DNA of 42,138 bases, from NCBI GenBank assembly GCA_964372275.1, contig CAYJRR010000020.1, forward strand, positions 1 through 42,138, read 5' to 3'. The stretch's first letter is position 1, and every line of letters begins with the position of its first letter. A program made the translations under genes and the position numbers. Below the pieces are notes generated by a model. It was not told the origin of the DNA and did no database searches. It saw nothing but the letters and a program-made list of their open reading frames with translations. This stretch comes from an uncultured bacterium (GTDB taxonomy: Bacteria > CAYJRR01). This document shows positions 6,269 through 24,375 of the stretch, piece by piece.

Positions 6269-6352
6269 TCCGATCGTTTCCTTTCGACTCATCTGTCAAT
6301 TCATTTCGCGCACGCGATCAGCGATCTCGCGCGGTTAGGTCCAACCGTTCGT

Positions 6353-6368: not shown

Positions 6369-6436
6369 TGGCGCGCTGTGTCAATCGCCGCGCCGCCGGG
6401 AGTCGGTACGGTTCTTTCGCAGGGAGAGGTGACCTC

Positions 6437-7237: not shown

Positions 7238-8512
7238 ATGAACACGTGGAACTGGACGGCAGCCCTCGCCGCGGCCGTCGGGCTGTCCGGCGTCGCCGGG
7301 TGCGACCTCGGCGACGACGGGGAGAGCGACGGACCTCCGGGCGGCGTCGTCTCGATCACCGCCTACAAGAACGGCGACCAGACCTACGCCAACGCTTCGG
7401 CCTTTTTCATCGCCCGGCTCGATACCTCCAACGGCTCTCAGCTCTCGTCCTACTCCGACAGCTTCATCCCCGACCTGCGAAGGGACCAGTGCGAGCTCCT
7501 CGAGGAGGAGGAGATCGAGTTGCCGGAGGCGATCGGTCTCGACGTCGGAAGCGAGGTTCTCCTCGCCGACTCCTCCGGCGACGAGATCGCGCTGGAGCCC
7601 GGGTTCGCAGAGGGTTCCTACGCGTCGACCGGCGAGATCGATCCCGAAGGGGGCGAGCGCTATTCGGTGTCGATCGAAGGAACGTCGGAGATCGAGGGCC
7701 GGACGTTGTCGGGCTCGATCCACTTCCCCGATCAACTGCTGCTCGATCGCTTCGCCGACGGCACGATCTCGATCGACTCCGACGAGGGGACCGACATCGA
7801 GTGGGAGCCGGTCGGCGCCGACGCGGTGGTGCTGTCCTTCCAGGGGGAGAAGAACGGACGCTGCCTCACCGAGGACGACGGCTCGTTCAAGATCCCCGGC
7901 GAGTTCGCCGAAGACCTCGGCGAGGGCGGATACTTCACGATCACCGCCGTCAACGAGTCCAAGACGAAGCTCGAGGGGCGCACGGTGCGGCTGGTCGGCG
8001 CCACCGGGCAGTCGGGAACCTTCACGGTGGAGGCCGGGGCCGGCGGCGGCGACGTCACGCGCTGCTCGATCGTGTGGATGTCGCCGGGCACCACGTCGGG
8101 AAAGATCCACGTCTACCTCGTCGACATGTCGGTCGGCCGGTGGTCGACCGGATCGAAGACCTTCGACGGCGAGGAGATCGTCGGCGCTCTTCTCTACGAC
8201 TACGGGAGCGGTGGGAGCGTCGCCGATCAGGCGGTCGCGTCGTCCGGCCAGTTCTCGCTGACGGTGGACGGATCCGCCGGCGGCGATGGCGTGTCGTTCG
8301 AGGATCCGAGCTCGCAGAGCTATTCGTCGGAGTCGGGAAAGACCGTCTCGGGCGGAACGGGCTCCTTCGACGGGGTCTTGACCGCTCCCGACGACGAGGA
8401 GGCCGAGTTCGGCGAGGGGTCGATCTCGATCACCTACGACGGAACGACCCTTTCGCTCGGGGAGTCCGGCGTCTACGCCCAGTGCTACGACGAGAACGCC
8501 TTCGCGCCCTGA
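7238..8512 (+). CDS. Acidic beta-rich lipoprotein (424 aa)
   Basis: GGAGG SD; VAGC lipobox; highly D/E/S/G-rich. Confidence 0.8.
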   Translation: MNTWNWTAALAAAVGLSGVAGCDLGDDGESDGPPGGVVSITAYKNGDQTYANASAFFIARLDTSNGSQLSSYSDSFIPDLRRDQCELLEEEEIELPEAIGLDVGSEVLLADSSGDEIALEPGFAEGSYASTGEIDPEGGERYSVSIEGTSEIEGRTLSGSIHFPDQLLLDRFADGTISIDSDEGTDIEWEPVGADAVVLSFQGEKNGRCLTEDDGSFKIPGEFAEDLGEGGYFTITAVNESKTKLEGRTVRLVGATGQSGTFTVEAGAGGGDVTRCSIVWMSPGTTSGKIHVYLVDMSVGRWSTGSKTFDGEEIVGALLYDYGSGGSVADQAVASSGQFSLTVDGSAGGDGVSFEDPSSQSYSSESGKTVSGGTGSFDGVLTAPDDEEAEFGEGSISITYDGTTLSLGESGVYAQCYDENAFAP

Positions 8513-8610: not shown

Positions 8611-9351
8611 GTGACGGTGTCGAGCGCAGTCCTTCCGTCCGTCGTCCGCGTGACGACCCTCGTCCGCGCCGGCCTGGCTCTGGCCGTGACGCCGGTCTGG
8701 TTCGGCGTCGCCCCGTTCGCGCGTGAGGCGGCGGCGCAGCCGGTCGAAGTGTCGATGACGCCGACGCCCACGCCGACGCCGCCTCCGAAGGTCGCGCCGA
8801 TCCCGATCTATCCCGAGACCGGCGCTGGCGCGGCGCGCGGGTCGGCGGCAGAGCCGGGCGCCGTGAGCGGACCGTCCGACGCGGGCGCGACCGGCGCCTC
8901 CGGCGGCGTCCGCTTCGACCGCGCCGGGATGTTCGGCGTGGGGATCGCCATCGGGAACACCTCCACCGGCGGGACGGCCAAGCTCTGGATCTCCCCCGAG
9001 CTGGCGGTCCAGTTCGGCGCCGGTTCGGGTCCACTGGGGAACAACGTCCGCTTCCAGCTCGACCTTCTCTACTACTACTTCAAGTGGAACGAACCGACGG
9101 GGCTGTACTCCCTGCCGTTCTACGCCGGCGTCGGCGCGCAGTCGGGGATCTCGTTCGAGAACCCGTACCCCGCCGACCGCACCGACATGGGGATCCGCGT
9201 GCCCACCGGGATGTCGGTGGTCGTTCCCGGAAACCCGGTCGAGCTCTACCTGGAGATCGCCGCCGACGTGGGGAGCTACGACGACGACCTGGACGATCCT
9301 CGGGTCGTCTTCTTCCTCGACGGCCAGGTGGGCGCCCGCTACTACTTCTAG
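8611..9351 (+). CDS. Putative small outer-membrane beta-barrel (DUF3996-like)
   Basis: GGAGG SD; signal peptide; PT linker; FGVGIAIG..GGTAKLW, FYAGVG, MGIRVPTGM; C-terminal GARYYF Bam signal. Confidence 0.75.
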   Translation: MTVSSAVLPSVVRVTTLVRAGLALAVTPVWFGVAPFAREAAAQPVEVSMTPTPTPTPPPKVAPIPIYPETGAGAARGSAAEPGAVSGPSDAGATGASGGVRFDRAGMFGVGIAIGNTSTGGTAKLWISPELAVQFGAGSGPLGNNVRFQLDLLYYYFKWNEPTGLYSLPFYAGVGAQSGISFENPYPADRTDMGIRVPTGMSVVVPGNPVELYLEIAADVGSYDDDLDDPRVVFFLDGQVGARYYF

Positions 9352-9387: not shown

Positions 9388-10692
9388 GTGTATCCGGCCC
9401 GCACCCGCCGAAATCGCCGCGTCCGCGAGCTGCGCCAGGGGGAGCCCGCGGTCCTCGGCGGGCGGCTGCGCAAGGACGGCGATCGGTGGCTCCTCGCCGA
9501 CGGAAGCGGGGAGGTCGAGGTCTCGGCGGCCGGGATCGATCCCGCGTGGGACGGCGCGCTGGTCGAAGCCGACGGAGTGGCGGGCCCGGCGCGGTTCGAC
9601 GCGCGCGAATGGGTCCGGGTCGCGCCGTGCCTGGGGCCCTCCCCCGACCCCTCGCTCGACCTGGCGGCGCTCGTTGCCCGTGACCGGCTCCTGGGGACGG
9701 TCCGCCGGTGGATGCGCGAGAACGGCTTTCTGGAGGTCGAGACGCCGACCCTGCTCCGTGCCTCGGGGCTCAACCCGCACATCGCCGAGCTGCGCTCCGA
9801 GTACCGGGAGCGTCCCGGTTCCGGGCGCGTTCCCTTGTGGCTCCGCACCTCGCCGGAGGTGTTCCACAAGCGCCTCCTGTCGAAGGGGGTCGAACGCTTC
9901 TACGAGCTGGGGCGCTTCTACCGGAACGGCGAGGCCGGACCGCTGCACAACCCGGAGTTCACCGGCCTCGAGTTCTACATCGCCTGGTCGGACTACCGCG
10001 CGATCATGGAGGCGACCGAACGCCTGCTCTCCGACGCCTTCGTCGCGGCGAGGGGGGCGGTCGACGGAGCGGCGCCCGCCGCGGAGCCGACGATCACGGT
10101 CGAAGGGGCCGTGGTCGACCTGTCGCCGCCGTGGGAGCGGATGACGGTCGGCGACGCGTTCCGGCGCCACGCGGGGGTCGACCTCGCCGCGGCCTCCGAC
10201 CTTCCGCGCCTTCGCCGGGCGGCGGAGGGGATCGGCGTGCGGGTCGCCGACTCCGACGCCTACGACGACGTCTTCTTCCGGATCCTGCTGGAGCGCGTCG
10301 AAGCGAGGCTCGGGGCGACGCGGCCGCTCTTCCTCCACGACTACCCGGCGTCGATGGCGGTGATGGCGAGACGGCGCGACGACGACCCTTCGATCGCGGA
10401 GCGCGTCGAGCTCTACGTGCGCGGCGTCGAGCTGGCGAACGGCTTCACCGAGCTGGCCGATCCCGCCGAGCAACGCCGCCGCTTCGAGGAGGACCGGACC
10501 GCCTACGCGCGTCACGTCGGCGCCGAGTCGGCCGATCTCCCGTTCGACGAGTCGTTCCTCGGCGCGCTCGTGCACGGGATGCCGCCCTCCTCGGGGATCG
10601 CAATCGGGCTCGACCGGGTGCTGATGCTGGCGCTCGGACGCACGACCCTGCGAGGCGTCCTCGCCTTCCCCTTCGACCCGCCGGACCGCTGA
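9388..10692 (+). CDS. epmA: EF-P lysine aminoacylase EpmA (GenX/PoxA) with N-terminal extension
   Basis: FLEVETP, LRTSPEVFHKRLL, YRNGEAGPLHNPEFT, FLHDYPA, ERVELY, ELANGFTEL, GMPPSSGIAIGLDR. Confidence 0.88.
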   Translation: MYPARTRRNRRVRELRQGEPAVLGGRLRKDGDRWLLADGSGEVEVSAAGIDPAWDGALVEADGVAGPARFDAREWVRVAPCLGPSPDPSLDLAALVARDRLLGTVRRWMRENGFLEVETPTLLRASGLNPHIAELRSEYRERPGSGRVPLWLRTSPEVFHKRLLSKGVERFYELGRFYRNGEAGPLHNPEFTGLEFYIAWSDYRAIMEATERLLSDAFVAARGAVDGAAPAAEPTITVEGAVVDLSPPWERMTVGDAFRRHAGVDLAAASDLPRLRRAAEGIGVRVADSDAYDDVFFRILLERVEARLGATRPLFLHDYPASMAVMARRRDDDPSIAERVELYVRGVELANGFTELADPAEQRRRFEEDRTAYARHVGAESADLPFDESFLGALVHGMPPSSGIAIGLDRVLMLALGRTTLRGVLAFPFDPPDR

Positions 10693-10708: not shown

Positions 10709-13372
10709 ATGGCCGAGCCCTCCCCGAAGCGCCGCCCGTGGCCGAGGCGGATCGCCCGCGCGACCGCCGCCGCCGCCGTGACCGGGCTCGCCATCGCCAT
10801 CGCCGTCGCCGCGTGGTTGCTCTGGTTCTTCCCCAATCGCCTGGCCTCCACCGCCGCGACGCGGGTGGCGAAGCGGTACGGCGTCGACCTCGTCGTCCAG
10901 GGACTCGCGCTCGAGCCGCTGCACGGCGTCTCGTTCGAGCGCCTCGCCGTCGGCGAGGAGGGGGTGGGCGGCGAGCCGCTCCTTTCGTGCGGCAAGGTCG
11001 CGCTCCGTTGGGAGTGGCGCGAGGCGGTCGACGACCGCCGGCTGCGCCTGACGGCCATCGACGTCGAACGACCGAGGATCGTCCTGGCGCGAAGAGACGG
11101 GCGCTGGAACGTCGAGCGTCTGCTCGATCGCGTCATGGACGCGCTCGGCGTCGCGACGGCCGGGGACGGAACGGAGTCACCGGACGTCCCGCCCGCAACC
11201 CCCGCTCCGACCCCGAGCGCGGTCCCGATCCACGAGCGGCTCGAGACCCAGGTACGCGATCTCGAGACGATGCTCGCCGGCCTGCCGGTCGAGGTCGCGC
11301 TCGACCGGGTGACGGTGCGCGACGTGGGGATCGTCGTCGAGACCGAGACCGGGACGCTCGCGTCGATCGAAGGCGGGGCGTTCGAAGGGAGTCTTTCGCT
11401 ACCGCGCGGAGGCGGCGGACGGCTCGTTGTCGAGGCGATGCCGGATCCTCCTCTCCGCCTCTCGGCCGCGCCCGCTCCGGGGATCGCCTTCGCCGGCACG
11501 CTGCGGCCGGAGGCGCGCGTCGAGTCCTTCCTTCCCCGGGAGACGAGCTTCACCACTCGAACGACGCTGCACGACGCGACACTCTCGATCGCCGGGCTCA
11601 TGCTGCCGGTCGACTTCGAAGTCGAGGGATCGGGCTCGGCGTCGCTGCCGGCGGGCGATCTCTCCGTCGAGCTGTCGAAGGTCTCCTGGGCCGGGTTCTT
11701 CGACGCCGTCGCCTCCTTCTCGGCGGACGACCTCGGCGTCGGCGGGCTGGAGGCGACGTGGAAGACGGCGGTGCGCGGCGATCGGCTGCCGCCGGCACTC
11801 GGTCGCGAGCTCCGGAAGGCGGCCCCGGCGGCGAAGCTGTCGCCGGGCGGGACGATCGACGGATCGCTCACCGGTCGGCTCGCCACCATCGAGCCGGACC
11901 GGCTGCGGGCCGATCTCGCGCGGGGCCGCCTGCCGCTCTCGCTCGAAGTCTCGAGTCGCGGCGTGACCGACGACCGGCCGATCTCGACCGACGTCGTCCA
12001 GGTGGGACGGATCGTCCACCGCGCCTTCGTGTCGGTCTCGCCGGAGCGGGTGCGGCTCAAGGCCGACGCCTCGATCGAGCGCCTGCGCGCTCCCGACCTG
12101 CTCGGGTCGGCGACGGTCCCTCTCCGCGTGGCGGGGGACGTGGAGGTGCGGTCGGATCTCGATGCCGCGCGGATCCACGCCGCCTCCGCCGAGGTGACTC
12201 CGATCGGACTCCGAATCGACGGATCGGGACGGGTCGCGGGCCTGAACGCCGCGCTCGCCCAGTACCAGGCTTCCGCCGCGAAGGGGGCCGACGCGCTCCG
12301 GGCGGGGATGGCGGCCGTCACCGACCTCGACGACATCCGGCTCACCGGCTCGCTGCGCCTGGCCCCGCGGGACGAGCGCGAGATCCTCGCCGGGGTCCAC
12401 GCGCGCGGCGCGCTCGAGGTCGAAGGCACGCTCACGCGCGGTCGCGGCCCGCACGGCCGCGTGCGCGGGACGCTTGCCGCCGACGGTTTCGGCGCGCGCA
12501 TGGAGGGGATCGCCGTCGAAGGGGTCGACGCCCGTCTCGCGATCGACCGGGAGCTGATCCTCGGCGGCCGTCCGCTCCTCTCGGGCATCGACGTCGCTTC
12601 CGACGACGCGGTCGTCTTCGATCCCGCCACCCGCGGCTACTTCGCCCGCCTGAGCTCGCTCGCCGCCACGGCCGACAACGTGCGCGTGGCGCGCGCCGCC
12701 GCCGGGAAGATCGAGGTGACCGACCTGTCGGCCGCGGTCCGCTACGACGGCTCTGCGATCCACGTCGACGCGGCGCGCATGCACCTCCTCGGCGGCGAGG
12801 TCGTCTCGCGGTTGATCCTGCGCCCCACGGCGAAGGGCCTCCACGTGGCGGCGGCCGGCGACCTGGCGGGGATCGACCTGCAACCGCTCCTGCTGGAGAA
12901 GCCGGTCGCCGATCCCGACGAGACCCGGGTCCACGTCGCGGCGGCGGCGGGTCTGTTCCTCTCCGCGACCGACCCGCTCGGCAGCCTTTCGCAGATGCGG
13001 ATGCGCGCCGACGCGATCGCCTCCGGGAAACGCGTCCTGGAGATGGGGCTCGCCTTCCTCGATCCCGAGTTCAAGGACCCGGTCTACAACTGGGCGCGCG
13101 ACATCAACAAGCGGATCGGCGGCCTCACGCGTCCCGAGATCACCCTGCTCGCCGACCGCGGGATGTACGACGTCGAGATCCGCTTCCCGTCGATGGGGAT
13201 CTCCAAGGAGGTGCGCCGAATCCCGTTGGAGCCGCTCCTCCGGCTCAAGTTCACCGAGCGGACGTTGGCGAGCCTGACGCCGTCGGCGGCTCTGTTGCCG
13301 CTGCTCGCCGCGCGCGGAATCGACGCCGACGGCGCGCCGCTGCTGCCCCCGATTGCGGAGGCGGACGAGTAG
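10709..13372 (+). CDS. AsmA/YdbH-like intermembrane bridge (beta-groove) protein, 887 aa
   Basis: Single N-terminal TM anchor; AsmA-N-like IDVERPRIVLARRDGRWNV; long repeating beta pattern; YdbH-like ARMHLLGGEV near the C-terminus; DUF1318 gene nearby. Confidence 0.7.
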   Translation: MAEPSPKRRPWPRRIARATAAAAVTGLAIAIAVAAWLLWFFPNRLASTAATRVAKRYGVDLVVQGLALEPLHGVSFERLAVGEEGVGGEPLLSCGKVALRWEWREAVDDRRLRLTAIDVERPRIVLARRDGRWNVERLLDRVMDALGVATAGDGTESPDVPPATPAPTPSAVPIHERLETQVRDLETMLAGLPVEVALDRVTVRDVGIVVETETGTLASIEGGAFEGSLSLPRGGGGRLVVEAMPDPPLRLSAAPAPGIAFAGTLRPEARVESFLPRETSFTTRTTLHDATLSIAGLMLPVDFEVEGSGSASLPAGDLSVELSKVSWAGFFDAVASFSADDLGVGGLEATWKTAVRGDRLPPALGRELRKAAPAAKLSPGGTIDGSLTGRLATIEPDRLRADLARGRLPLSLEVSSRGVTDDRPISTDVVQVGRIVHRAFVSVSPERVRLKADASIERLRAPDLLGSATVPLRVAGDVEVRSDLDAARIHAASAEVTPIGLRIDGSGRVAGLNAALAQYQASAAKGADALRAGMAAVTDLDDIRLTGSLRLAPRDEREILAGVHARGALEVEGTLTRGRGPHGRVRGTLAADGFGARMEGIAVEGVDARLAIDRELILGGRPLLSGIDVASDDAVVFDPATRGYFARLSSLAATADNVRVARAAAGKIEVTDLSAAVRYDGSAIHVDAARMHLLGGEVVSRLILRPTAKGLHVAAAGDLAGIDLQPLLLEKPVADPDETRVHVAAAAGLFLSATDPLGSLSQMRMRADAIASGKRVLEMGLAFLDPEFKDPVYNWARDINKRIGGLTRPEITLLADRGMYDVEIRFPSMGISKEVRRIPLEPLLRLKFTERTLASLTPSAALLPLLAARGIDADGAPLLPPIAEADE

Positions 13373-13390
13373 TCCGCGCATTCGCGCTCC

Positions 13391-13407
13391 ATGGGGGTCT
13401 CCCCCAT
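13391..13407. terminator. Short hairpin between convergent genes
   Basis: atggggg-tct-cccccat, 7-bp perfect inverted repeat. Confidence 0.35.
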
Positions 13408-13414
13408 ACCCGCT

Positions 13415-14173
13415 TCAACGGCAGCAGGCGACCGGGAGCGCGGTGTTGCAATTGACGTCGCCGGTGAACTTGATCTCCGTCGCCAGCCCGGGACCGGCCA
13501 CCGACTTCGGATCGGAGTCGACGACGGTGAAGCGCGTGCCCCGGTAGAGGTCGGCGGAGTTGTAGGTCCAGTTCCCGCAGGAGCCCTTGAACGAGTTGTT
13601 CGTCGGATCGGACGAGGAGTAGCGGTAGTCGTGCGACCCGAACGTCATCCCGGTCGTCCCTTCGCCGATCAGGCCCTGGTGAACGTTCCGGATCAGCTCC
13701 TCGTTGGTGCAGGCGTGCGCGCTCGGGACCTTGTCGGACTGCCCGGCGAAGACGAGCGTCTTGCAGATCTCGTCGGCGGCGCGGACCCCGATCCGGCCGG
13801 AGGCCGCGTTGTAGAGGATCTGTCCGGTCCGCCCGGAGATCTGTCCGCCGGGGGAGGCGAGCGTTCCGTTCTGCGCAATCGTCGGCGTGAAGGTCCCGAG
13901 GAACTTCCCCTCGTCGGGATCGCCCAGACGCGGGTCCTCGCTGGAGACGACGCGGTCGTAGTCGACGCGCAGCGTCGGAGGGGCGCCGCCGACGCCGGGA
14001 TCGCAGGTCAACCCCTCCCCGATGTGGAAGGTGTTGCAGTCGACCGAGAACGGGGCCGTGGTCTGCCCGTCGTCGTCGTCGTCTCCACGGGCGGGACCTT
14101 CCTTGACGCCGGTGCTGCCGCAGCCGGCGACCGCCAGGACCGACAACGTAAGAATTCGTTTCAAAGCGACCAT
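13415..14173 (-). CDS. Cys-rich lipoprotein, possible endostatin/C-type-lectin-like (DUF1554-like) domain
   Basis: MVALKRILTLSVLAVAGC lipobox; DDDDD linker; GVRAADEIC...SCGNWT...CNTALPVACC pattern. Confidence 0.75.
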   Translation of the reverse strand: MVALKRILTLSVLAVAGCGSTGVKEGPARGDDDDDGQTTAPFSVDCNTFHIGEGLTCDPGVGGAPPTLRVDYDRVVSSEDPRLGDPDEGKFLGTFTPTIAQNGTLASPGGQISGRTGQILYNAASGRIGVRAADEICKTLVFAGQSDKVPSAHACTNEELIRNVHQGLIGEGTTGMTFGSHDYRYSSSDPTNNSFKGSCGNWTYNSADLYRGTRFTVVDSDPKSVAGPGLATEIKFTGDVNCNTALPVACCR

Positions 14174-14225
14174 GACACACTCGCCCCGCTTCGTGCCCGC
14201 GGAACCGACCCGAATCGCGACAAGG

Positions 14226-14241
14226 AGCATCGACCGTACCG
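14226..14241 (-). promoter_or_regulatory. Candidate sigma54 promoter
   Basis: CGGTACGGTCGATGCT on the minus strand, GG-N10-GC, about 50 nt upstream of ATG 14173. Confidence 0.45.
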
Positions 14242-14449
14242 ACCGGCGATCGGGCGTCGTTTCCCTCGACGGCGCGCGAAGATCCCGCGCGGCGTGCGAC
14301 GGACGTGCACGCCACGACTGGGGGACGGCCGCCCCGACGAACCGCCGTTCGGAGGGGGGCTCCGGTGACGCCGATCCCCACCCGATCGAATGGAAGGAAG
14401 GGGCGTTCCGTCGAACGATCGCGCCGATTCTTCGATACGATACGCACCC

Positions 14450-15079
14450 GTGAACGCCGAACGACCGCTCCGCCGTCCGCCCCCGCGTCCCCCTCTCCCC
14501 CCGTGGGTCGTGCTGCTTCCGGCCCTCCTCCTGGCGACCGGGGGCTGTTTCAACCGCTTGTCCGGCCTGGTCGACGTGAACGTCCAGGTGGTCGACGAGA
14601 AGACGCTGTTGGAACGGCAGATCCTCGGCGCCTACCAGGGCCTGGAGACCGACCTGGTGATGGCGGCCTCCGTCCGCTCGGTCGACACCGAAGGGCGGCT
14701 GGTTCCGCTGCCCGACTACCCGGCCGGCCAGCGGGCGGCGATGGACGCGCTGCGGGTGCGCGAGTTCTACCGCGACGACGTCGACCGGTTGAAGGCGGAG
14801 GGGATCTTCGGCGAGGCCAGCAGCGGCTTGCTCACGGCGCGGGTCGACCTGGCGAAGGTCGACGCGAAGAAGGCGGCGCTGGCCAAATCGGTGATGGAGG
14901 CCGAGAACGGCGCGCGCCGGGCGCTGATCGACCGGATCCTGGAGACCGCCGAATCGCTCAAGCCGGAGGACCGCCCCAAGGTGGAGCGGGTCTTCGCGCA
15001 GATGAACCGCGATGCCGCGCGTGCCGGAGAGTGGATCCAGACCGACGACGGCGCGTGGACGCAGAAGGCCAAGCCGTGA
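14450..15079 (+). CDS. Lipoprotein with YnbE-like N-terminus and YdbL/DUF1318 domain
   Basis: LLLATGGC lipobox, VDVNVQV strand, then LKAEGIFGEASSGLL, ENGARRALI, FAQMNRDAARAGEWIQTDDGAWTQK (DUF1318 hallmarks). Confidence 0.8.
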   Translation: MNAERPLRRPPPRPPLPPWVVLLPALLLATGGCFNRLSGLVDVNVQVVDEKTLLERQILGAYQGLETDLVMAASVRSVDTEGRLVPLPDYPAGQRAAMDALRVREFYRDDVDRLKAEGIFGEASSGLLTARVDLAKVDAKKAALAKSVMEAENGARRALIDRILETAESLKPEDRPKVERVFAQMNRDAARAGEWIQTDDGAWTQKAKP

Positions 15080-18000
15080 CCGCGCCGGCCTGCCGCCCGG
15101 AACGTCGCCGGCGCCGTCGCGGCGCGATCCCGCTCGTCCCGTTGCTTCTGGGTCTCGCCGCCTGCCCGCGTCCGGTGCGGATCGAGGAGCGCCTTCCGCC
15201 GCCGCCGAAGCTCGTGCGCGGCCAAGTCGACGACGGCCCGCTCGGGAGAATCCGGCGTCCGTCGCGCCTGACCGCCGACCCGGCGCAGGAGTACGACCCG
15301 GCCCCCTCCCCGGACGGGACGGCGCTCGTCTACGTCGGCCACCGCCGCGGCAACGCCGACCTGTTCCTCCGCTTCCTGCCCGGGAGCGGGCGCGTCGGCG
15401 AGTTCCCGATCGCCGAGCACTTCGCCGCCGACACCGACCCGGCGTGGTCGCCGAACGGACGGCAGATCGCCTTCGTCTCGAAACGCGACGATCCCAAGGG
15501 GGACCTCTACGTCTACAACCTGAAGACGGGGGACGCCGTCCCGGACGCTGTTCGCGAAGCGCTCCTGGGTCGATTCCAGGAGTTGCTCGCGCGACCGGAC
15601 GCGGAGCTCTCCCCCGCCGAGCGCGAGCAGCGGGCGCGCGTCTCCCGCTATTTCGAAGGGCACGATCCCCTGCTCCGTTTTTCCGACACCGGCCGCGAAG
15701 TTCGCGGACCCGCATGGTCGCGCGACGGCGGCACGATCTACTACTCGGCGCGGCGGCCGGGGGAGCCGGAGAACGTCTGGGCCCTCGACGTGCTGACGCG
15801 GACGCCGACCGCCGTCACGACCGACGGCGGATTCGATCCGGCCCCCTCCCCCGACGGCAAGTTCCTGGCCTACGCCTCGCGCGCCGGCGATCCGAACGGC
15901 GGGCTGAAGCTGATGCGCCTGGCCGACCGGAAGTCCGTGTCGCTCACCATCGGCTCTCCGATCGACGGCCTCCCCACCTGGTCGACCGACGGGCGGACGC
16001 TCTTCTTCACCCGCTATGCCCACGACACCAACGGCGATGGGCGGCTCGATCTCGACGACCGACCCAGCCTCTACGCGGTGACGATGAGCTTCGCCGGCAC
16101 CGTCGTCGGCTCGGGGGGGATGATCGCCCCGATCCCCTGGCCGGTGACGCCGGCCGGCGGATACGACCTGTTCCCGGCCGTCGCCGGCGGGCGCCTCTTC
16201 TACTCCTCCGACGACGGAACGAACGCCGACCTGTGGGCGATCCCCGAGAGGGGGATCTTCCCGGAGCTCGCCTCCAGCCGCGAGGAGCTCGCGCTCGCCG
16301 ACGAACTGGTGAACGAGCCGCGGATGCGGCTTCTGCTGCTCGAGCAGATCGGCGCTCGGCGCCCGGGCGACGACGCCGCGGCACAGGATGCGCGTCTGGC
16401 CGCCGGACGGTTGCGGATCGAACGGCGCGAGAGCGGGGCCGCGGAGAGGCTGCTCGAACGGCTGGACTCGGCGACCGACTCCGAAGAGAAGGACGGCGAC
16501 GCGCGCGCCGCCTCCGTGCATCGGGCCCGCGCGCGCATCCTCGCCGCCGCCCTCGCCGCGCTCAAGGCCGAGAGCGGCGGATCGATCGACAAGTCGGCGC
16601 TGCGCAGGACCGCCGACGCGCTCGAGCGAGACGCGGCCGGCTTCGAGCCGGCGCAACGGGCGGAGGCCTACCTCGAAGCGGGCCTGGCGCGCGCCAGGGC
16701 CGGCGACCTCCTCCAGGCGACCGAAAGCTGGCAGCGCGCCGCGCGCGAGGAGGGGGGCGGCTGGGCCCGGGCCGAGGCCGGGCTCGCCGCGGCGTCCGCC
16801 TACGGCGACCTCGGCCAGGCCGACCGCAGCGTCTCCACCTTTCTCGCACTGCTGTCCGCCCATCCCGAGCTGCCGGTGCCGGCGGAGCGCCGCGCCGCCG
16901 TGGAGCGGGAGCGGAAGCAGCGTCTGGAACGGATCGACAAGCGACTGGGAGGATCCACGGAACGGCCGGCCGCGGGGATCGATCCGGCCGGCCTGCCCGA
17001 CGTCGGCGTGCCGGCGACCTACGGCGAGCGAGCCGCGGCGGGCGTCGCCACGGCGGCGATCCTGGGGAACGCCGACGCCCACGCCGCGATCGCCTCCCTG
17101 CGGGACCTTGCCACGCGCCACCGCGATCTCCCCGTGCTCCCCGCCCTGGCCCGCAACGAGATCGGGGACCTCTACCTTCGCGTCGGAGACGTCGAGTCGG
17201 CGACGCTGGAGTACCGCGCCGTGGCGGAGTCGGGACTCGACCGCCGGCAGGAGCAGCGCGCCCGGCTTTCGGCCGCCAAGGCGCTGCTGATCGCCGGACG
17301 GTACGCCGACGCCGTCGCCGCGGTCGGAGCTCCGCCGCCGGCCGGCGGCGCCGGCGCGAAGGCGTCGGCGGCGTCGGCGATCCTCGCCCGCCGGGCGCTG
17401 TCCGCCTACGTCCGCACGCTGTTGGCGAAAGCGGACGACGAGTTCCGCGACCGCGACTACGCGCTGGCCCGCAAGAGCTACCGCGCGGTGCTCGCCGTCG
17501 ACAGCCGCGAGGTCCGCGCCCACCGCGGGTTGATCGCCAGCGCCGCGGCCCTGGGGGAGGCCGACCGCATCGCCCAGGTCTACGAGGAGGAGGCGGCCTC
17601 GACGCCCGACGATCCGCTCATCCGCTACGGAGTCGGGCTCGCCTACTCCTACCGCGAGCCGGCGGAGACCTGGCTGGCCAAGGCGGAGAACGAATTGAAG
17701 GCGGCGGTCGCGCTCGACGACGCGGCCGTCTTTCCGCACCAGACGCTCGGATTCGTCTACGAGAAGCGGGAGGAGCTGTTCGGCGAGGAGGGCGGCTTCG
17801 AGCGCGCCGCCGACCAGTACCTGATCGCGCTGTCGCTGAACGAGGTGAAGGAGGACTACCGGAACGAGTCCGACCTGCTGCTCAACGTCGGGAACGCCTT
17901 CTTCAACCTCAAGAACCATCGCGCCGCGTACGACCACTACCGGCGCCGCGAGCGCGCGTCCGTCCCTTTCGACGTGAAGGGTCGGGAGCTCGTCTTCCTG

Positions 18001-21000
18001 GAGCGGATCGCGAAGTGCGCATTCGAGACCAACCGCATCGACGAGGCGCGCGATCGGTACGATCGCGCCCTCGCCTTCCTCGACTCGCTCGGGGAGAAGG
18101 ACCTTCCGGCCGAGTCCGCCGCCGAGCACCGCGCCCGTCTGCTCGACGAGCGGGCCTTCGCCCTCGACCGCGGCGGCCGGAAGTCCGAGGCCGCGGCGGC
18201 CTACCTCGACGCGGCCAAGGCGAACTCGATCGCCGGCAACGAGCAGAACTCGGCCCGCGCGCTGCGCAACGCGGCGATCAACCTGTTCGAGAACAAGGGG
18301 TTCGGGGAGCTCCCCGGGGAAGCGCGAACGCGCGGATGGGACGCTACGGGCGCCGACGCCGACCGGAAGCCCCTGGTCGACGCGCTCTCCTACCTCGAGC
18401 GGAGCCTCGAAGGGGTGAAGAAGGACGGCGTCGTCGAACGGACCGACGAACGGAAGAAGCGGGCGCTGTTCTCCTACGACATGAAGATCGGGCTTTCGGC
18501 CGACACGTCGGAGGCGTCCGAAGGGTTCTCCAAGGCCGGCGAGAAGGAGCTGATCTTCACCTTCCTCGGAAAGATCCACCGGGCGCTCGGGGACCCGGCC
18601 CGCGCCCGCGAACAGCTCGAGAAGAAGCGGGCGATGCTCCCGTCGCGTGTCGCCGACGAGCAGAAGGCGGCGGTCGAGTTCAAGCGGGCCCTGCTCGAGA
18701 ACCAGATCGGGGTTCTCTCCCACGCTCTGGGCGACGCCGACGCCGCCTGGCGGGAGCTCGCCTCCTCGTGGAAGCGGAGCGAGTCGCTTGCGAACGTGCA
18801 GGGCACCGTCGTGAACGCCGCGAACCTGGCATGGATCGCCCTCGAACGGAACGACGCCGGGCGAAGGCAGGAGGCGCGCTCGTTCGTGGACGCCTCGCTA
18901 TCGCTGCTGGAGCGCGCGGCGCTCGCCGATCCGGAACGGTACGTCCCGTTGCTGAAGGGCGCGCGTGGCCTCCTGCGCGTGGCCGATGCCGCGTCGCCTC
19001 GCCGCGGCACGCCGGGCGCGTCCGCGATGCCCGGTCCGGAACCGGCCGCAGGCGGGATCGACCCGGCGTCGATCGCCGCACGACTGCGCCGCCTCGAAGA
19101 CCAGGGCCGTCTCCTTGCAGAGGCGGACGCCGACCTGAACGCGGCGCTCGGGCTCCTGGCCAAGACCGAAACGCCGTTCCCGGGGATGGCGCGGCTGCAC
19201 GTGGCGCTCTCCCGCGCCTCGGCCGAGATCGCCTCCCGGCGCGGGAACGCGAAGGAGTCGGCCGATCGCTACGCGGCGACGGCGTCGCTGGCGCGATCGC
19301 ACGGGATGGACGCGGTCGCGACGCAAGCGGAGATCGCGGCGCGGCTCCTCGGACCGACCGGCGGCGCCGAGGACGCGGCCCTCGACGAGACCTTGACCCG
19401 GCTGGAGGCGGTGCCGGCGCCGGTGCTCGCGATCGAGCTCGACCTGGCCGGGATCGAACCGGCCTATCGCCGGCTCGCCGCGGCGAAGCTTGCCGGGGGC
19501 GACGCCAACGGCGCGTTCTCGACGATGGAGCGACTTCGCGCCCTGCAGCTCGTGGCGCGCGCCGGCGGCCGGATTCCGCGGGGATCGGGGGCCGACGTGC
19601 GCGCGGCGGCCGACACCGTCCGGGATCGACGGACCGCCCTGCTCGCCGCCTACCGCGCCCTGAACGACGAGAGCGGCCCCGGCGACGGCGCGGAGAGGAA
19701 ACGGCGGCGCGACGCCTACGACCAGGCGGCGGCCGCCTGGAAGGGCGCGGTCGACGAGTGGGGCGGCTGGGACGACGTCGGATGGGGGCTGGCAACGCCG
19801 GCCGCGCCCGATCCGTCGGCGCTCTCGATGGCGGTGCCGCCCGACACCGTCTTCGTCTACTTCATCGCGACCGCCGACGCGTTGTGGTCGCTGCGGTGCG
19901 CCGACGGTGCCTGCACCGCGACCCGGGAGGGACCCTCTCCCGCCGAGGATCTCGCCGGTTCCCGGTCCGCGGCGGCGGCCGCCGTCGAGCGGGCCGCGGG
20001 AGAAGTCACGGGGATGGGTCGCGCGACCCTCGTCCTGGACGTCGGCCTGTTCGACGGCGAATGGATCCCCGCTTCGTTCCGCAAGAGTCGGATCGTCACC
20101 CTCCACAAGAGCGCCGGCAGCGTGATCGCGGGCTACGAGCACCGGGCGCCATACCGTGAGCGCAGGATCGTCGCCTCCGAGGCGGGGGCCGCGCAGCTCT
20201 TGGCCGACGCGCCGCGCGCCGACGAGATTCTCGTCGACGCCGCCGGCATCGTCCCCGCCGGGCGTCCGCTCGACGCGCACTGGGAGCTGACGCGGCCCGA
20301 GGGGCCCGCCCCCGTCCGCCGCGTCACCGCGGCCGACCTCCTCCTCGCCGGTCCGACGGTCTCGGCGATCGTCGCCCAGGTGGGAAGCCCGGCGGCGGGC
20401 GCCAAGGCCGATCCCGAGACCCTCCTCGCGCTCGCCGAGCTTTGGTTGCGCGCCGGCGCCGGCACCGTCGCGTTTGCCGAGTCGCCCCGCGCTTCGCGCT
20501 CCTCGGAGGCGTCCCTGCTCTCCGGCCATCCGGGGATGACGGCGTCCGAGCTGGCGACCTTCGGCGAGGAGGCGTACGCCGAGCTGTCGGCGCAGGTCTC
20601 CCAGGCGATGCAGGAGAAACGCTGGGACGACGCCTTGGTCCGACTCGAGCGCGCGCGCTACCTGATCGATTCGCTGCAGATTCCGGTTTCGCCGGCCGAG
20701 GTGGTCGAAGCGCAGGTGATGGCCGCCTACAACGCCGGGAGGTGGGCCGACGGGGCCCGCTACGCGGCCGAACAGGTGCGCCTTCTCGAGAAGGCGGGAG
20801 AAAAGGGGCTCCCGCTCGCCGACGCCTTGGCCAACCTCGGCGCCTTGCAGCAGCGCGCCGAGCGGTACGAAGAGGCGACGGCAACGCTCGAGCGGGCGTC
20901 GGAGGCGTACCAGGCGCTCGGCCAGAAAGACGGCGTCTCCCGCGCACTGACCTCGCTCGGGGCCACCTTCGAGCGCTGGCTGAAGACCGACAAGGCGCTG

Positions 21001-23451
21001 GAAGCGTTTCGCCGCGCGATCAAGACCCAGGAGGAGATCGGCGGACAGAGCGGCATCGGCGATCTGGAGCGGAAGATCGGCCGCGTCCATTACCAGTACC
21101 TCGAGGACTATGCCGAGGCCGAGGCGCATTTCGCCGCCGCGCGCGACGCCTACCGGGCGGCGAAAAACGCCGCCGGGGAGGACGAGGCCCGTCTCGAGCT
21201 GGGCCTCGTCGCGGAGCGGCGCGGGGAGCTGGAGGCGTCGAAGAAGGCGTATTCCGAGGTGCTGGACCGGGCGTCGGCGCGAAAGGACCGCGCGATCGAG
21301 GGCAAGGCGACGCTCTTCCTGGCCAACACCGCCTGGCTCTCCGGCGACTACCAGTCGGCGTTCGCGCGCGTTCGCGAAGCGCGGCGGATCGGGGCGGAGA
21401 CCGGCTCCGCGCGGCTCGATTTCCTGGCCCGGTCGACCGAAGGGCTCCTCCATTGGACGCTCAACGACCTGGCACGGGGGGTCGCGCTGCAAGAGGAGGC
21501 CCTTCTGCTCGCGCGCGGGCTCGACAGCCCGATCGACGAAGCGAGCACCCACAACAATCTCGGGATCCTGTTCCGGTCGGCGCGTGAATTCGACCGGGCG
21601 CTCGCGAGCTTCGAACGTGCGCTGGCGATCGACCGCCGGATCGGAAGCCGCTGGGGCCAGGCATACGACCTGCGGAACATCGGCTTGACGCACCTCCAGT
21701 CGGGAGAGATCTCTCGCGCGCGCGAGCCGCTCGAGTCGGCGGTGGCGCTGTCGCGCGAGATCGGCGACCGCGTCAATGGCGCCAAGGCGGAGCTGGCGCT
21801 GGCCGAGTTCCATCGCCTCCAGGGAGGCCGCGCCGGCGCCCCCGCGGGCAGCCTGCGCGACGCGAAGAACGGCTTCGCAAGGGCGCTGGCCCAGGCCGAA
21901 GCCTCGCATCTGCCGGAGGTCGCCTGGCGCGCCCATCGGGGACTCGCCCTGCTCGCGCGCGATGCCGGGGAGATTGCGACCGCGAAGGCGCAGCTCGACG
22001 CCGCGATCGGCGTCGTCGAGAACCTGCGCGGTTCGATCAAGGTGGAGGAGCTGAAGAACGGATTCATCGCCGACAAACTCGACCTCTACGACGACGCCAT
22101 CCGGCTCGCACTCGATCATCCCACGCCCGGAATCGACGCCGCGCAGGTCGCGTGGTCCTACTCCGAACGGTCCCGCGCGCGCTCGTTCATCGACCTGTTG
22201 GCCAATCGCAAGGTGGACCTCTCCTCCCCCGACGATGCGCGGCGCCTCGCCGAGCAGCGCCGCCTCAAGGCCCGTCTGTTCGCGGCCGAGGACGCGCTGG
22301 CGAAGTCGGCTCCGGCCGAGCGGCCCGCCCGGGAGAAGGAGTTGGCGACGCTGCGCGAGAGCTATCGCGATCTGTTGCTCGAGATCCGCGCGGCGAACCC
22401 CAAGTTGTCGGCCTTCGTCACCGTCGAGCCGCCGACGCTGGCCGACGTACGCAAGGTGATCGGCTCCGACACGGCGCTCCTCGAGTACCACGTCGCCGCC
22501 ACCGAGACCTACGTCTGGACGATCACCGACGGATCGATCCGGGTGGAGCGGCTGGGCATCGGCCGTGACGCGCTGGCGGCCGCGGTCAAGGCATACCTCT
22601 CCAAACTGGAGGCGATCCGTCCGGTCGACGCCGAGTCGCGCGAGCTGTGGGAGCTGCTGCTCGCCCCGGCACTCCATCCCGAGGCGCGGAAGAAACGCTA
22701 CCTGGGGATCGTTCCCCACGGCACGCTCCACTACGTTCCGTTTGCGGCCTTGAAAGAGGGGAACGAACACCTCGTCGACCGCGCCTCGCTCTTCTACGTG
22801 CCGTCCGCCGCCGTCCTGCCGTTGACCGGCGGCGGAGTCGCTCGACCGGCCGAACGTACCGCCTCGCGCGTCCTTGCCATCGGAAACCCCGACCTGGGAG
22901 ACGCGTCGTTCGCGCTGCCGTTCGCGGAGCTCGAAGTCGGTGACCTGCGCCTCGATTTTCCCCAGATCGACGTCATGACCCGCGATCGCGCCACCGAGCG
23001 CTGGGTGCAGAAGAACGTCTCCGACTACCGCGTGATCCACTTCGCCTGTCACGGCGAGTTCGACGCGGTCAACCCCCTCTTCTCGTCGCTGCGCCTGGCG
23101 CGCGAGCAGGAGGCGGACGGCGCCCTCACCGCGGCCGAGATCTTTGGACTTCCGCTCAAGGCGGAGCTGGTGACGCTCTCCGCGTGTCGCACCGGACTCG
23201 GCAAGATCGAGGCGGGGGACGAGCTGATCGGCCTCAACCGGGCCTTCCTCTACGCAGGAACGCGCAGCATCATGAGCACCCTCTGGCGCGTCCACGACGG
23301 GTCGACCGCCGTCCTGGTGAAGCACTTCTATCGGGGATTCGCGCGCGAACCGAAGGCCGACGCGCTACGCGGCGCGATGCGGCAGGTCCGCGAGTACTAC
23401 CCGCACCCGGCCTACTGGGCCGCCTTCGCCCTCACCGGCGAGTACCGCTGA
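15076..23451 (+). CDS. Giant lipoprotein (2791 aa): TolB/PD40 propeller, TPRs, degenerate CHAT-like domain, TPRs, CHAT (caspase-like) protease
   Basis: GTG overlaps the upstream TGA (GTGA); basic N-region plus LLLGLAAC lipobox; PD40 repeats (PAPSPDG, PAWSPNG, PAWSRDG, PTWSTDG); TPR helices; CHAT motifs IVPHGTLHYVPF, HFACHG, LVTLSACRTG, STLWRV, HPAYWAAF. Confidence 0.92.
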   Translation: MTAPACRPERRRRRRGAIPLVPLLLGLAACPRPVRIEERLPPPPKLVRGQVDDGPLGRIRRPSRLTADPAQEYDPAPSPDGTALVYVGHRRGNADLFLRFLPGSGRVGEFPIAEHFAADTDPAWSPNGRQIAFVSKRDDPKGDLYVYNLKTGDAVPDAVREALLGRFQELLARPDAELSPAEREQRARVSRYFEGHDPLLRFSDTGREVRGPAWSRDGGTIYYSARRPGEPENVWALDVLTRTPTAVTTDGGFDPAPSPDGKFLAYASRAGDPNGGLKLMRLADRKSVSLTIGSPIDGLPTWSTDGRTLFFTRYAHDTNGDGRLDLDDRPSLYAVTMSFAGTVVGSGGMIAPIPWPVTPAGGYDLFPAVAGGRLFYSSDDGTNADLWAIPERGIFPELASSREELALADELVNEPRMRLLLLEQIGARRPGDDAAAQDARLAAGRLRIERRESGAAERLLERLDSATDSEEKDGDARAASVHRARARILAAALAALKAESGGSIDKSALRRTADALERDAAGFEPAQRAEAYLEAGLARARAGDLLQATESWQRAAREEGGGWARAEAGLAAASAYGDLGQADRSVSTFLALLSAHPELPVPAERRAAVERERKQRLERIDKRLGGSTERPAAGIDPAGLPDVGVPATYGERAAAGVATAAILGNADAHAAIASLRDLATRHRDLPVLPALARNEIGDLYLRVGDVESATLEYRAVAESGLDRRQEQRARLSAAKALLIAGRYADAVAAVGAPPPAGGAGAKASAASAILARRALSAYVRTLLAKADDEFRDRDYALARKSYRAVLAVDSREVRAHRGLIASAAALGEADRIAQVYEEEAASTPDDPLIRYGVGLAYSYREPAETWLAKAENELKAAVALDDAAVFPHQTLGFVYEKREELFGEEGGFERAADQYLIALSLNEVKEDYRNESDLLLNVGNAFFNLKNHRAAYDHYRRRERASVPFDVKGRELVFLERIAKCAFETNRIDEARDRYDRALAFLDSLGEKDLPAESAAEHRARLLDERAFALDRGGRKSEAAAAYLDAAKANSIAGNEQNSARALRNAAINLFENKGFGELPGEARTRGWDATGADADRKPLVDALSYLERSLEGVKKDGVVERTDERKKRALFSYDMKIGLSADTSEASEGFSKAGEKELIFTFLGKIHRALGDPARAREQLEKKRAMLPSRVADEQKAAVEFKRALLENQIGVLSHALGDADAAWRELASSWKRSESLANVQGTVVNAANLAWIALERNDAGRRQEARSFVDASLSLLERAALADPERYVPLLKGARGLLRVADAASPRRGTPGASAMPGPEPAAGGIDPASIAARLRRLEDQGRLLAEADADLNAALGLLAKTETPFPGMARLHVALSRASAEIASRRGNAKESADRYAATASLARSHGMDAVATQAEIAARLLGPTGGAEDAALDETLTRLEAVPAPVLAIELDLAGIEPAYRRLAAAKLAGGDANGAFSTMERLRALQLVARAGGRIPRGSGADVRAAADTVRDRRTALLAAYRALNDESGPGDGAERKRRRDAYDQAAAAWKGAVDEWGGWDDVGWGLATPAAPDPSALSMAVPPDTVFVYFIATADALWSLRCADGACTATREGPSPAEDLAGSRSAAAAAVERAAGEVTGMGRATLVLDVGLFDGEWIPASFRKSRIVTLHKSAGSVIAGYEHRAPYRERRIVASEAGAAQLLADAPRADEILVDAAGIVPAGRPLDAHWELTRPEGPAPVRRVTAADLLLAGPTVSAIVAQVGSPAAGAKADPETLLALAELWLRAGAGTVAFAESPRASRSSEASLLSGHPGMTASELATFGEEAYAELSAQVSQAMQEKRWDDALVRLERARYLIDSLQIPVSPAEVVEAQVMAAYNAGRWADGARYAAEQVRLLEKAGEKGLPLADALANLGALQQRAERYEEATATLERASEAYQALGQKDGVSRALTSLGATFERWLKTDKALEAFRRAIKTQEEIGGQSGIGDLERKIGRVHYQYLEDYAEAEAHFAAARDAYRAAKNAAGEDEARLELGLVAERRGELEASKKAYSEVLDRASARKDRAIEGKATLFLANTAWLSGDYQSAFARVREARRIGAETGSARLDFLARSTEGLLHWTLNDLARGVALQEEALLLARGLDSPIDEASTHNNLGILFRSAREFDRALASFERALAIDRRIGSRWGQAYDLRNIGLTHLQSGEISRAREPLESAVALSREIGDRVNGAKAELALAEFHRLQGGRAGAPAGSLRDAKNGFARALAQAEASHLPEVAWRAHRGLALLARDAGEIATAKAQLDAAIGVVENLRGSIKVEELKNGFIADKLDLYDDAIRLALDHPTPGIDAAQVAWSYSERSRARSFIDLLANRKVDLSSPDDARRLAEQRRLKARLFAAEDALAKSAPAERPAREKELATLRESYRDLLLEIRAANPKLSAFVTVEPPTLADVRKVIGSDTALLEYHVAATETYVWTITDGSIRVERLGIGRDALAAAVKAYLSKLEAIRPVDAESRELWELLLAPALHPEARKKRYLGIVPHGTLHYVPFAALKEGNEHLVDRASLFYVPSAAVLPLTGGGVARPAERTASRVLAIGNPDLGDASFALPFAELEVGDLRLDFPQIDVMTRDRATERWVQKNVSDYRVIHFACHGEFDAVNPLFSSLRLAREQEADGALTAAEIFGLPLKAELVTLSACRTGLGKIEAGDELIGLNRAFLYAGTRSIMSTLWRVHDGSTAVLVKHFYRGFAREPKADALRGAMRQVREYYPHPAYWAAFALTGEYR

Positions 23452-23483: not shown

Positions 23484-23972
23484 TCAACGGGCGACGCCGC
23501 CGCCCGGGCCGCCGATCCCGGCGTCGCGCAGCAGCGCCGGCGCGTTGCTCACAGCGGTGCGGAGGACGTTGTTGTACTCGGCGCGGGTGTAGGTCCGGCC
23601 GGCGATCGAGACCTGGTTGATCATCTCGTTGATCTTGGCCGCGATCTTCGCCTCGTCCATCCCCGCTCCGGCCGTCTTCAAGCCGTAGGCCGCCGCTCCC
23701 AGACCGACGGTTCCCAGCGCGAGGCCGAGGCCCGTCCAGCCGACGATGTAGCCGCCGATGGCCGACCCGGCGCCGGCGATGGCGATGAGCGAACCGACCG
23801 CGATGTGGCCCGTCACCCTTCCCATCAGCGTCGTGTGGTCCCTCCGCATCTCCTCGACGGTGACGATCTCGTCGTCGGTTGCCGCCCGCGCGCCGGCACC
23901 GAACAGCATCGTCGCCGAAAGCGCGACCGACAGCGCCGCGCGACGAAGACCACCGACCACTTCGATCGTCAT
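23484..23972 (-). CDS. Secreted small protein with Gly/Ala-rich hydrophobic hairpin
   Basis: Signal peptide ending ARA; GSLIAIAGAGSAIGGYIVGWTGLGLALGTVGLGAAAYG; TACAAT -10 at 23996-24001 on the minus strand. Confidence 0.7.
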   Translation of the reverse strand: MTIEVVGGLRRAALSVALSATMLFGAGARAATDDEIVTVEEMRRDHTTLMGRVTGHIAVGSLIAIAGAGSAIGGYIVGWTGLGLALGTVGLGAAAYGLKTAGAGMDEAKIAAKINEMINQVSIAGRTYTRAEYNNVLRTAVSNAPALLRDAGIGGPGGGVAR

Positions 23973-24093
23973 GATGGAACCCCCCGCAAACCCGCATTGT
24001 ACCGCGCCGGAACGGGCTCCGCTACGGCGCCGACCCGTGGAATGCCGTGGCGGTTCACCTTGCGCCGGTCGCCGGAATTGCCTTTGGCGACGG

Positions 24094-24375
24094 CTACCTG
24101 GGCGTCCGGCCGGCCATCACCACCAGGCCGATCGCCGCCGCCCAGACGGCGAGCAAGAGGAAGATCAGCAGCCCCGACACGACGAGGCGCCGCAGTTTCA
24201 CCAGGATCAGGCCGACGCCCGCGGTCGCCCCTCCGAGCGCCGCGGCGGCGAACCGGAAATCGACGGGACCGATCCGGGCCGTCGCCCCTCCCAGTCGGTC
24301 GCCCAGCAACCAGCCGACGGCGGCCCCGAGGAGGACGGCGATGACCGATCGAACGGCGAAGAAGATCACCGGCAC
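24094..24375 (-). CDS. Small 3-TM membrane protein downstream of murA
   Basis: [24 protein letters not shown]...[25 protein letters not shown]; fills the gap after murA. Confidence 0.6.

Follow-up and report, generated by a model that had tools for sequence, protein, structure and literature searches.

Three genes and their predicted products

We have analyzed a set of three genes that had been predicted to form a novel envelope system in an uncultured bacterium (GTDB lineage Bacteria; CAYJRR01). The stretch under study, called the window below, is the whole 42,138-base contig CAYJRR010000020.1, which belongs to a 4.6-Mb metagenome-assembled genome of 71% G+C and 94.6% completeness. The original prediction had described a YdbH/AsmA bridge, a YnbE-YdbL lipoprotein and a giant exported TolB-TPR-CHAT protease, encoded by three same-strand genes of which the last two are coupled by a GTGA overlap. 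The features of the locus, here called genes 1 to 3, are listed in Table 1. Translation bore out the three open reading frames (ORFs), including the products of 887 aa and 2791 aa, and the GTGA overlap is found at 15076-15079, where the start GTG of gene 3 overlaps the stop TGA of gene 2. The three genes do lie on the plus strand; they are not contiguous, however, and a minus-strand gene between the first two had been missed. The third-position G+C (GC3) of genes 1-3 lies between 0.87 and 0.91 (0.91 in gene 1), and all three frames are coding. The start of gene 2 is uncertain, with an ATG at 14390 and GTG codons at 14450 and 14510 as candidates; the public gene call corresponds to a 189-aa form.

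Table 1. Coordinates of the three genes, their domains and the intervening gene, as positions in the window.
Feature	Position	Strand	Description	Basis
Gene 1	10709..13372	+	887 aa; AsmA-like, inner-membrane-anchored (predicted)	ORF and translation
Intervening orphan gene	13415..14173	-	252-aa Cys-rich lipoprotein, lipobox LAVAGC	
Gene 2	14390..15079	+	229 aa from first ATG; lipid-anchored YdbL-like (DUF1318) protein	
Gene 2, N-terminal extension	14549..14776	+	Residues 54-129 of the 229-aa form	
Gene 2, DUF1318/YdbL domain	14777..15067	+		PF07027 profile, hhalign, Foldseek
Gene 3	15076..23451	+	2791 aa from GTG; lipoprotein	
Gene 3, PD40 (TolB-like) beta-propeller region	15265..16254	+	Residues ~64-393	Boundaries sequence-derived
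Gene 3, TPR / alpha-solenoid scaffold	16255..22632	+	Residues ~394-2519	
Gene 3, CHAT domain	22633..23439	+	Residues 2520-2788	

The protein encoded by gene 3, referred to here as the giant, starts with a lipoprotein signal of only 30 residues (lipobox LGLAAC, Cys30) ahead of its propeller. The propeller region matches PD40 in four stretches (Pfam, 91.4 bits), and the best-named matches of residues 59-312 are to TolB models (TIGR02800), with scores of 72.1 against a cut-off of 343 and 46.8 against 405. The scaffold that follows has Pfam matches to TPR_12, TPR_1, TPR_16 and SNAP and amounts to ~2000 aa of TPR; its poorly conserved middle part (~1260-1850) gave no Pfam match at E 10. The CHAT domain (PF12770) scores 204.6 bits, or 210.8 in the genome search, against a cut-off of 24, and gene 3 is the only CHAT gene of the genome. 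The TPR and CHAT parts of the predicted TolB-TPR-CHAT architecture stood, as did a TolB-like PD40 propeller; the equivalog cut-offs of TolB are not reached, and there are no tol-pal neighbours.

The CHAT domain aligns with the solved Craspase TPR-CHAT chains (E 2e-5) with its CHG and AC motifs in register. Its catalytic pair is His2659 (23050-23052) and Cys2704 (23185-23187), which we take to correspond to H585 and C627 of the Craspase TPR-CHAT protein, and the His-Cys dyad is retained in all 11 giants inspected. Gene 3 is therefore predicted to end, as had been claimed, in a caspase-like protease domain, and the active-site dyad of this domain is intact. Related giants range from 2460 to 2870 aa and have an identical domain order. 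A signal sequence starts 12 of 12 giants inspected and a lipobox is found in 8-9 of them; those of loci L005, L007 and L020 have a plain signal peptide with no lipobox Cys. The giant is thus predicted to be exported and, in the window, to be a lipoprotein, in agreement with the earlier claim. Overlaps of 1-4 nt are also seen between gene 2 and giant homologues in L005 and L007, and gene 3 is, as judged from the sequence, translationally coupled to gene 2.

A second, dead CHAT domain in the middle part of gene 3 was considered and rejected: BLASTP gave E 3.2, Pfam gave no match at E 10, and a hidden Markov model (HMM) of the giants' CHAT domains gave none. A comparison of this part with the CHAT domain by hhalign reached a probability of 66% over 47 columns only. 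An internal dead CHAT-like module is clear in the giant of locus L055 (15996-16850; E 3e-10; His->Arg, Cys->Glu) and weak in that of L013. In databases the giants are named just 'CHAT domain-containing protein'. Precomputed annotations place two further Pfam families, PF26549 and PF26550, on nearly all relatives of the giant (P0213-P0250), and these may already define part of it.

Gene 2 is the sole DUF1318 gene of the genome. It matches the Pfam DUF1318 family (PF07027) with 42-44 bits (cut-off 27), and hhalign aligns it to residues 25-107 of E. coli YdbL with a probability of 95% (E 2.6e-8). The best match in the PDB to its AlphaFold2 model (pLDDT 83) is, according to Foldseek, the crystal structure of YdbL (28oj; TM 0.81, rmsd 2.3 A). 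By profile and by predicted fold, then, the C-terminal half of gene 2 is a YdbL domain. Ahead of this domain is an extension of ~80 residues that E. coli YdbL does not have. The protein carries the lipobox LATGGC, with the Cys (Cys53, at 14546-14548) invariant in 19 of 19 aligned sequences of the family, and the most conserved part of the family is a motif in the extension, VNVxVVDEKTLLERQILG. In the model, made for the 189-aa form, the first ~16 mature residues are a coil of low pLDDT, followed by helices at 30-54 and 72-96. Databases contain 55 relatives of gene 2 with 47-73% identity and lengths of ~195 aa. Residue R61 of E. coli YdbL, which lies at the interface with YnbE, aligns with R136 of gene 2 (numbered as in the 189-aa form), an Arg that is invariant among the aligned sequences; it is the single interface residue that was mapped.

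The proposal of a YnbE-YdbL lipoprotein thus holds for the lipobox and for YdbL (42.1 bits in the Pfam search), and fails for YnbE. The N-terminal extension has no Pfam match even at E 10, and an alignment of gene 2 and its relatives (A1) matches E. coli YnbE by hhalign in the lipobox only, with a probability of 1.6%. A six-frame search of the genome with the YnbE family (PF13617, Lipoprotein_19) gave no match at E<=1. These null results give no support to homology of the N-terminal part of gene 2 with YnbE. A look-up of this part in the Atlas returned only DUF1318 clusters of ~190 aa, with scores <0.8. During an attempt to collect YnbE sequences for a profile, YnbE genes were found in 1 of 201 genomes. 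The layout expected of YnbE is a lipid anchor, a beta strand that adds to the sheet of its partner and then a helix. The N-terminal segment of gene 2 has the anchor and the helix, and the residues between them lack order in the monomer model; it might stand in for YnbE, which would be analogy, not homology.

The AlphaFold2 model of gene 1, based on a 41-sequence alignment, has a pLDDT of 83.9 and consists of a helix (11-39) and then ~40 beta strands in a nearly unbroken series; the hydrophobic stretch at ~17-41 would form an N-terminal membrane anchor. The top Foldseek match of the model is LPD-3 (9cap_A; E 7.2e-8, probability 1.00); fourth in rank is a fragment of Vps13 (6cbc_B), with a probability of 0.98. 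VIA-align superposes the model on LPD-3 over 549 residues (model 41-839) with Z 8.6, and on Vps13 with Z 9.2 and an rmsd of 4.2 A. Closed beta-barrels score as high as these lipid-transfer proteins or higher, so that VIA does not separate a groove from a barrel. The case for a groove is therefore made by how Foldseek ranks the matches, by how far the alignment with LPD-3 extends and by the anchor at the N-terminus. Structures of TamB and YhdP are not among the 50 VIA entries shown, which is not taken as a lack of likeness. With the reservation about barrels, the beta-groove that had been expected of the 887-aa protein is what the model resembles.

Pfam matches of gene 1 are below the cut-offs for AsmA (PF05170; 22.6 against 29.8), DUF748 (PF05359; 29.2 against 50) and YdbH-like (PF11739; 16.3/14.9 bits against 26.3, over profile positions 3-83 of 893 only), and all three are confined to residues 8-143. 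Two homologues that are tied to gene 1 by the A2/A3 profiles do exceed the AsmA cut-off, the one in L005 with 35.1 bits and the one in L039 with 42 bits. Because of the model, the Foldseek ranking and these homologues, gene 1 is filed as AsmA-like, that is, as a protein of the bridge-like lipid-transfer kind whose beta strands are predicted to build a long and open rod. This supports the AsmA half of the 'YdbH/AsmA bridge' and not the YdbH half: hhalign of the gene 1 profile (A3) against E. coli YdbH gave a probability of 0.45%, and only the first 83 positions of the YdbH-like model are covered, so that gene 1 is not demonstrably a YdbH orthologue. A HMMER profile made from gene 1 and three syntenic homologues found 4307 relatives at E<=1e-3 among 1.84 billion representative proteins; most of them are 1200-1400 aa long, with the C-terminal 550 residues in common. 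A second AsmA-like candidate lies elsewhere in this genome: an open frame of 1733 aa whose AsmA match (C12:21664-21804, +) is weak, at 15.2 bits, and which is possibly a TamB- or YhdP-type paralogue.

Gene order here and in other genomes

Loci were gathered through the long form of the DUF1318 protein, using two of its motifs. A pattern scan with gene 2 alone had yielded no confirmed locus, and the loci came from an alignment-based scan. They number 46, of which 11 come from species genomes, one from a further genome (G056), 33 from metagenomes and one from the window, and they fall into 37 clusters at >=90% identity. The contigs are short, and many of the metagenome contigs may be from related organisms. 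Upstream AsmA-like genes were detected on the same strand with the A2/A3 profiles.

Of the 37 clusters, 31 have the giant directly downstream of the DUF1318 gene. Among these 31, there is an upstream AsmA-like gene in 18, or in 18 of the 26 that can be assessed, the flank being too short in 5. The prediction that the three genes occur together in other genomes was therefore borne out, and in the DUF1318 tree the three-gene form is spread over five clades, each separately supported. It is also present in G056, which is kin to this genome at the domain level only and whose gene 2 homologue is 34% identical. The distance from the end of the AsmA-like ORF to the DUF1318 match is <=107 nt in 15 of these 18 clusters, too little for a separate ynbE gene in these relatives. 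Genomes without an adjacent AsmA-like gene have AsmA-like relatives elsewhere (E 1e-13 to 1e-29). A reverse scan from the N-terminal half of the giant found 8 loci, all on contigs already found via DUF1318. The pairing of the DUF1318 gene with the giant is the firmest link in the set, and the DUF1318 gene is its hub, because it is also found with the giant alone or with the AsmA-like gene alone.

Among the clusters that have the long DUF1318 form and no giant downstream, one (L039/L040/L044/L045) retains the AsmA-like gene. In the low-G+C metagenome clade L039-L046 the place of the giant after the DUF1318 gene is taken by a protein of 343-347 aa that belongs to no Pfam family and has a membrane helix at its C-terminus; its gene overlaps the DUF1318 gene by 16 nt in L043. 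In L044 and L045 the DUF1318 gene is followed immediately by a DDE transposase of the insertion sequence (IS) type. Loci without the giant also keep the nearly invariant motif found in the N-terminal part of gene 2, and the giant therefore does not explain it.

In the window, the interval between genes 1 and 2 is filled by the opposite-strand gene at 13415-14173, which has G+C contents of 0.59/0.53/0.90 at codon positions 1/2/3. Its product has an Asp run after the lipobox and a Cys-rich C-terminus ending in ...ALPVACCR. It matched no Pfam, NCBIfam or PADLOC family, its best Atlas score was 0.76, and tblastn at E<=1e-4 gave no match to it in the 45 other DUF1318 loci, in an output that listed only matches to gene 3 and the AsmA-like gene. 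This gene is outside the conserved module; it seems to have been inserted in this lineage only and to have split the trio. A 325-aa ORF on the plus strand of the same region (13391-14368) was rejected as non-coding because its G+C content peaks at codon position 1, not 3.

Because the opposite-strand gene intervenes, gene 1 is in another transcription unit than genes 2-3 here. Gene 1 begins 16 nt past epmA (9388-10692, plus strand; EF-P lysine aminoacylase, TIGR00462, 310 bits). In this genome gene 1 is probably cotranscribed with epmA, and genes 2-3 are probably transcribed from their own promoter; a scan of 13200-15200 for promoter and terminator consensus sequences gave no match. At the other end, a convergent gene on the minus strand (23484-24116) closes the set 3' of gene 3. 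An EF-P gene directly follows the DUF1318 gene in the unrelated locus L047 (10668-11225), and this, beside the epmA gene that adjoins gene 1 here, may be coincidence.

A possible bridge module with a coupled protease

We read the locus as a variant of the YdbH-YnbE-YdbL-type envelope module that is without YnbE and is extended by a coupled giant exported protease, and we give this reading a probability of about 0.5. In E. coli, YdbH does not have the length to cross the periplasm by itself (PMC11126948). YdbL holds YnbE, a lipoprotein of the outer membrane, by the amphipathic helix at the C-terminus of YnbE and adjusts how the YdbH-YnbE bridge is assembled, and free YdbL is degraded by DegP (bioRxiv 10.64898/2026.03.16.712125; PMC13748024). 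The locus resembles this system in having an inner-membrane-anchored, beta-rich protein of close size (887 aa in gene 1, 879 aa in YdbH) and, in most relatives, a YdbL/DUF1318 gene just downstream. It differs in that gene 1 has no YdbH-specific similarity, there is no YnbE gene, and a giant PD40-TPR-CHAT lipoprotein is coupled here. Moreover, E. coli YdbL is a soluble periplasmic protein of ~87 mature residues, whereas gene 2 is lipid-anchored with its conserved extension of ~80 residues, and the set is split by an opposite-strand gene, unlike the ydbH-ynbE-ydbL operon. What is new here, to judge from the sequences, would be that an AsmA-like/YdbL module does without YnbE, has a helper that carries a lipid anchor and is coupled to a giant protease; the YdbH-YnbE-YdbL bridge itself is known. 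A full-text literature search found no description of a combination of DUF1318 and AsmA-like proteins with a CHAT giant.

If the three proteins act together, gene 2 would sit at the outer membrane and link the far end of the AsmA-like rod to the giant, with its YdbL pocket and the conserved N-terminal strand-helix segment making the connection. The giant, long enough to reach across the periplasm, might then act as a regulated scaffold-protease, its propeller and TPR arms presenting targets to the caspase-like domain. It would cut bridge components, or clients at the bridge, and proteolysis would in this way govern how the intermembrane connection is assembled or turned over. In its most specific form the proposal is a proteolytic checkpoint, in which the YdbL-like lipoprotein docks a periplasm-spanning, outer-membrane-anchored protease at the far end of the AsmA-like bridge. 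The giant would then cut the bridge, its cap or clients that the propeller and TPR arms present, and such cleavage would open, close or dismantle the connection; this specific version we regard as improbable.

Several points weigh against the reading of the locus as one module. The coupling of the bridge to proteolysis is drawn by analogy, and physical contact among the three proteins is something we infer. All loci were retrieved through the two motifs of the long DUF1318 form, and the synteny counts are conditional on that form. No AsmA-like gene was found within >=1.2 kb upstream in 8 of the 31 giant-bearing clusters (within 10 kb in L010-L012 and L055), and 6 clusters with the long DUF1318 form have no giant downstream. 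Genes 1 and 2 are separated by about 1 kb (given as 1156 nt) and by the opposite-strand gene, and the corresponding distance in L005 is 6.4 kb. Gene 1 exceeds no Pfam cut-off, its profile shows next to no relation to YdbH, and closed beta-barrels reach VIA Z scores of 9-12.7, compared with 8.6-9.2 for the lipid-transfer proteins. Prediction of a complex between residues 540-887 of gene 1 and mature gene 2 gave a score of 0.00 in two runs, which speaks neither for nor against binding.

A first alternative is that the AsmA-like and DUF1318 genes are the local form of the known ydbH-ydbL pairing, and that the giant works on its own in the periplasm, as a protease or scaffold, and is just cotranscribed with the small lipoprotein gene, for example because both serve envelope housekeeping. 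The DUF1318 gene does occur with an AsmA-like gene and no giant (L039/L040/L044/L045) and with the giant and no AsmA-like gene (8 clusters), gene 1 is in another transcription unit in the window, and the invariant motif of gene 2 persists where the giant is absent. However, 8 of 8 loci found from the giant have DUF1318, and the full gene order is kept in five separate clades, which is hard to explain without shared function. We consider separate functions unlikely.

Comparison of the giant with known TPR-CHAT proteins suggests a second alternative. The closest solved sequences to its CHAT domain are those of Csx29, the type III-E Craspase TPR-CHAT protein (7x8a_D, 8d9f_A, 7y9x_B), although the score against the Csx29 model (NF041237) is 50.8 bits, far under the cut-off of 300. 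The type III-E TPR-CHAT protein is a switch-like protease. Csx29 is cytoplasmic, RNA-guided and ~700 aa long, unlike the exported product of gene 3, which has no cas genes in the flanks scanned. DdvA of M. xanthus is, like the giant, an extracytoplasmic TPR-CHAT protein with a His-Cys dyad in a diderm host, and it has been proposed to autoproteolyse on a signal; its TPR-CHAT part is periplasmic (PMC11506125). By analogy, the giant could be an envelope sensor for phage, predators or damage that cleaves itself or a partner, with the DUF1318 protein as inhibitor or adaptor and the AsmA-like protein as bystander or target. Gene 3 shares the TPR-CHAT end with DdvA, and its own dyad is intact. The same source describes DdvA as an anti-sigma factor of 991 residues that spans the membrane, has a zinc domain in the cytoplasm and lacks a complete active site (PMC11506125). 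The giant, in contrast, is a lipoprotein of 2791 aa that includes a propeller; a transmembrane or cytoplasmic anti-sigma part is absent from it, and it has no sigma partner. No sigma factor, CRISPR or known defence gene is adjacent to the locus; the genes around it, epmA and a TsaC-like gene, have housekeeping roles, and PADLOC assigned no defence family, with only a weak TPR match. A sensor role of this type is accordingly rated as quite improbable, and the module with a coupled protease remains the reading we prefer.

The propeller provides a likeness to TolB, which also has a periplasmic PD40 beta-propeller; the TolB propeller binds the lipoprotein Pal. In gene 3, unlike TolB, the predicted propeller makes up only ~12% of the protein, and tol-pal genes are not adjacent.

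A third alternative starts from the lipid anchors. GspN, an AsmA-like protein of the beta-taco type, is required to move lipoproteins to the surface (PMC12802150), and gene 1 might likewise be a conduit that moves the giant, the DUF1318 lipoprotein or both to the outer membrane or the surface, with the YdbL domain as a holdase. Gene 1 resembles GspN as a single-pass membrane protein with a predicted fold of the beta-taco type, and GspN is functionally tied to lipoproteins (PMC12802150); genes 2 and 3 both encode predicted lipoproteins. GspN has ~250-280 aa and is encoded in gsp operons, in contrast to the 887 aa of gene 1, which has no gsp neighbours. The match of gene 1 to the GspN model (TIGR04411) is 22 bits, far below the cut-off of 50, and the genes scanned in the window include none for type II secretion. 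This explanation is further weakened because giants without a lipid anchor, in L005, L007 and L020, still have an AsmA-like gene in the locus, directly upstream in L007 and L020 and 6.4 kb upstream in L005. We hold such a conduit to be very unlikely.

If the module that we favour exists, it bears on phospholipid transport to the outer membrane and on the assembly and control of AsmA-like bridges. To our knowledge, studies of accessory factors of such bridges have so far dealt only with E. coli YnbE and YdbL. The gene set described here has rarely been noticed and is nevertheless conserved across several poorly studied phyla. Should the three proteins cooperate, they would provide a concrete case of proteolysis acting on an intermembrane bridge and a role for one of the largest exported CHAT proteins (300-kDa). 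The checkpoint, if true, would place lipid flow to the outer membrane under protease control, a form of regulation that no bacterial or eukaryotic bridge-like lipid-transfer protein is known to have. Even without cooperation, the long lipid-anchored form of YdbL, with the invariant motif in its N-terminal part, suggests that AsmA-like proteins can be capped in another way.

Genome context

In the set searched, this genome is the sole representative of its phylum: a search at phylum level returned only the genome itself, and the relatives returned, in sets of 60 and 200, were all rated 'same domain'. Two plus-strand genes of the window, at 7238-8512 and 8611-9351, have no family. Further upstream in the window are genes for a TonB-dependent receptor, a major facilitator superfamily (MFS) transporter and an outer-membrane beta-barrel protein (89-2461, 4391-6166 and 6167-7207), which confirm a diderm envelope.

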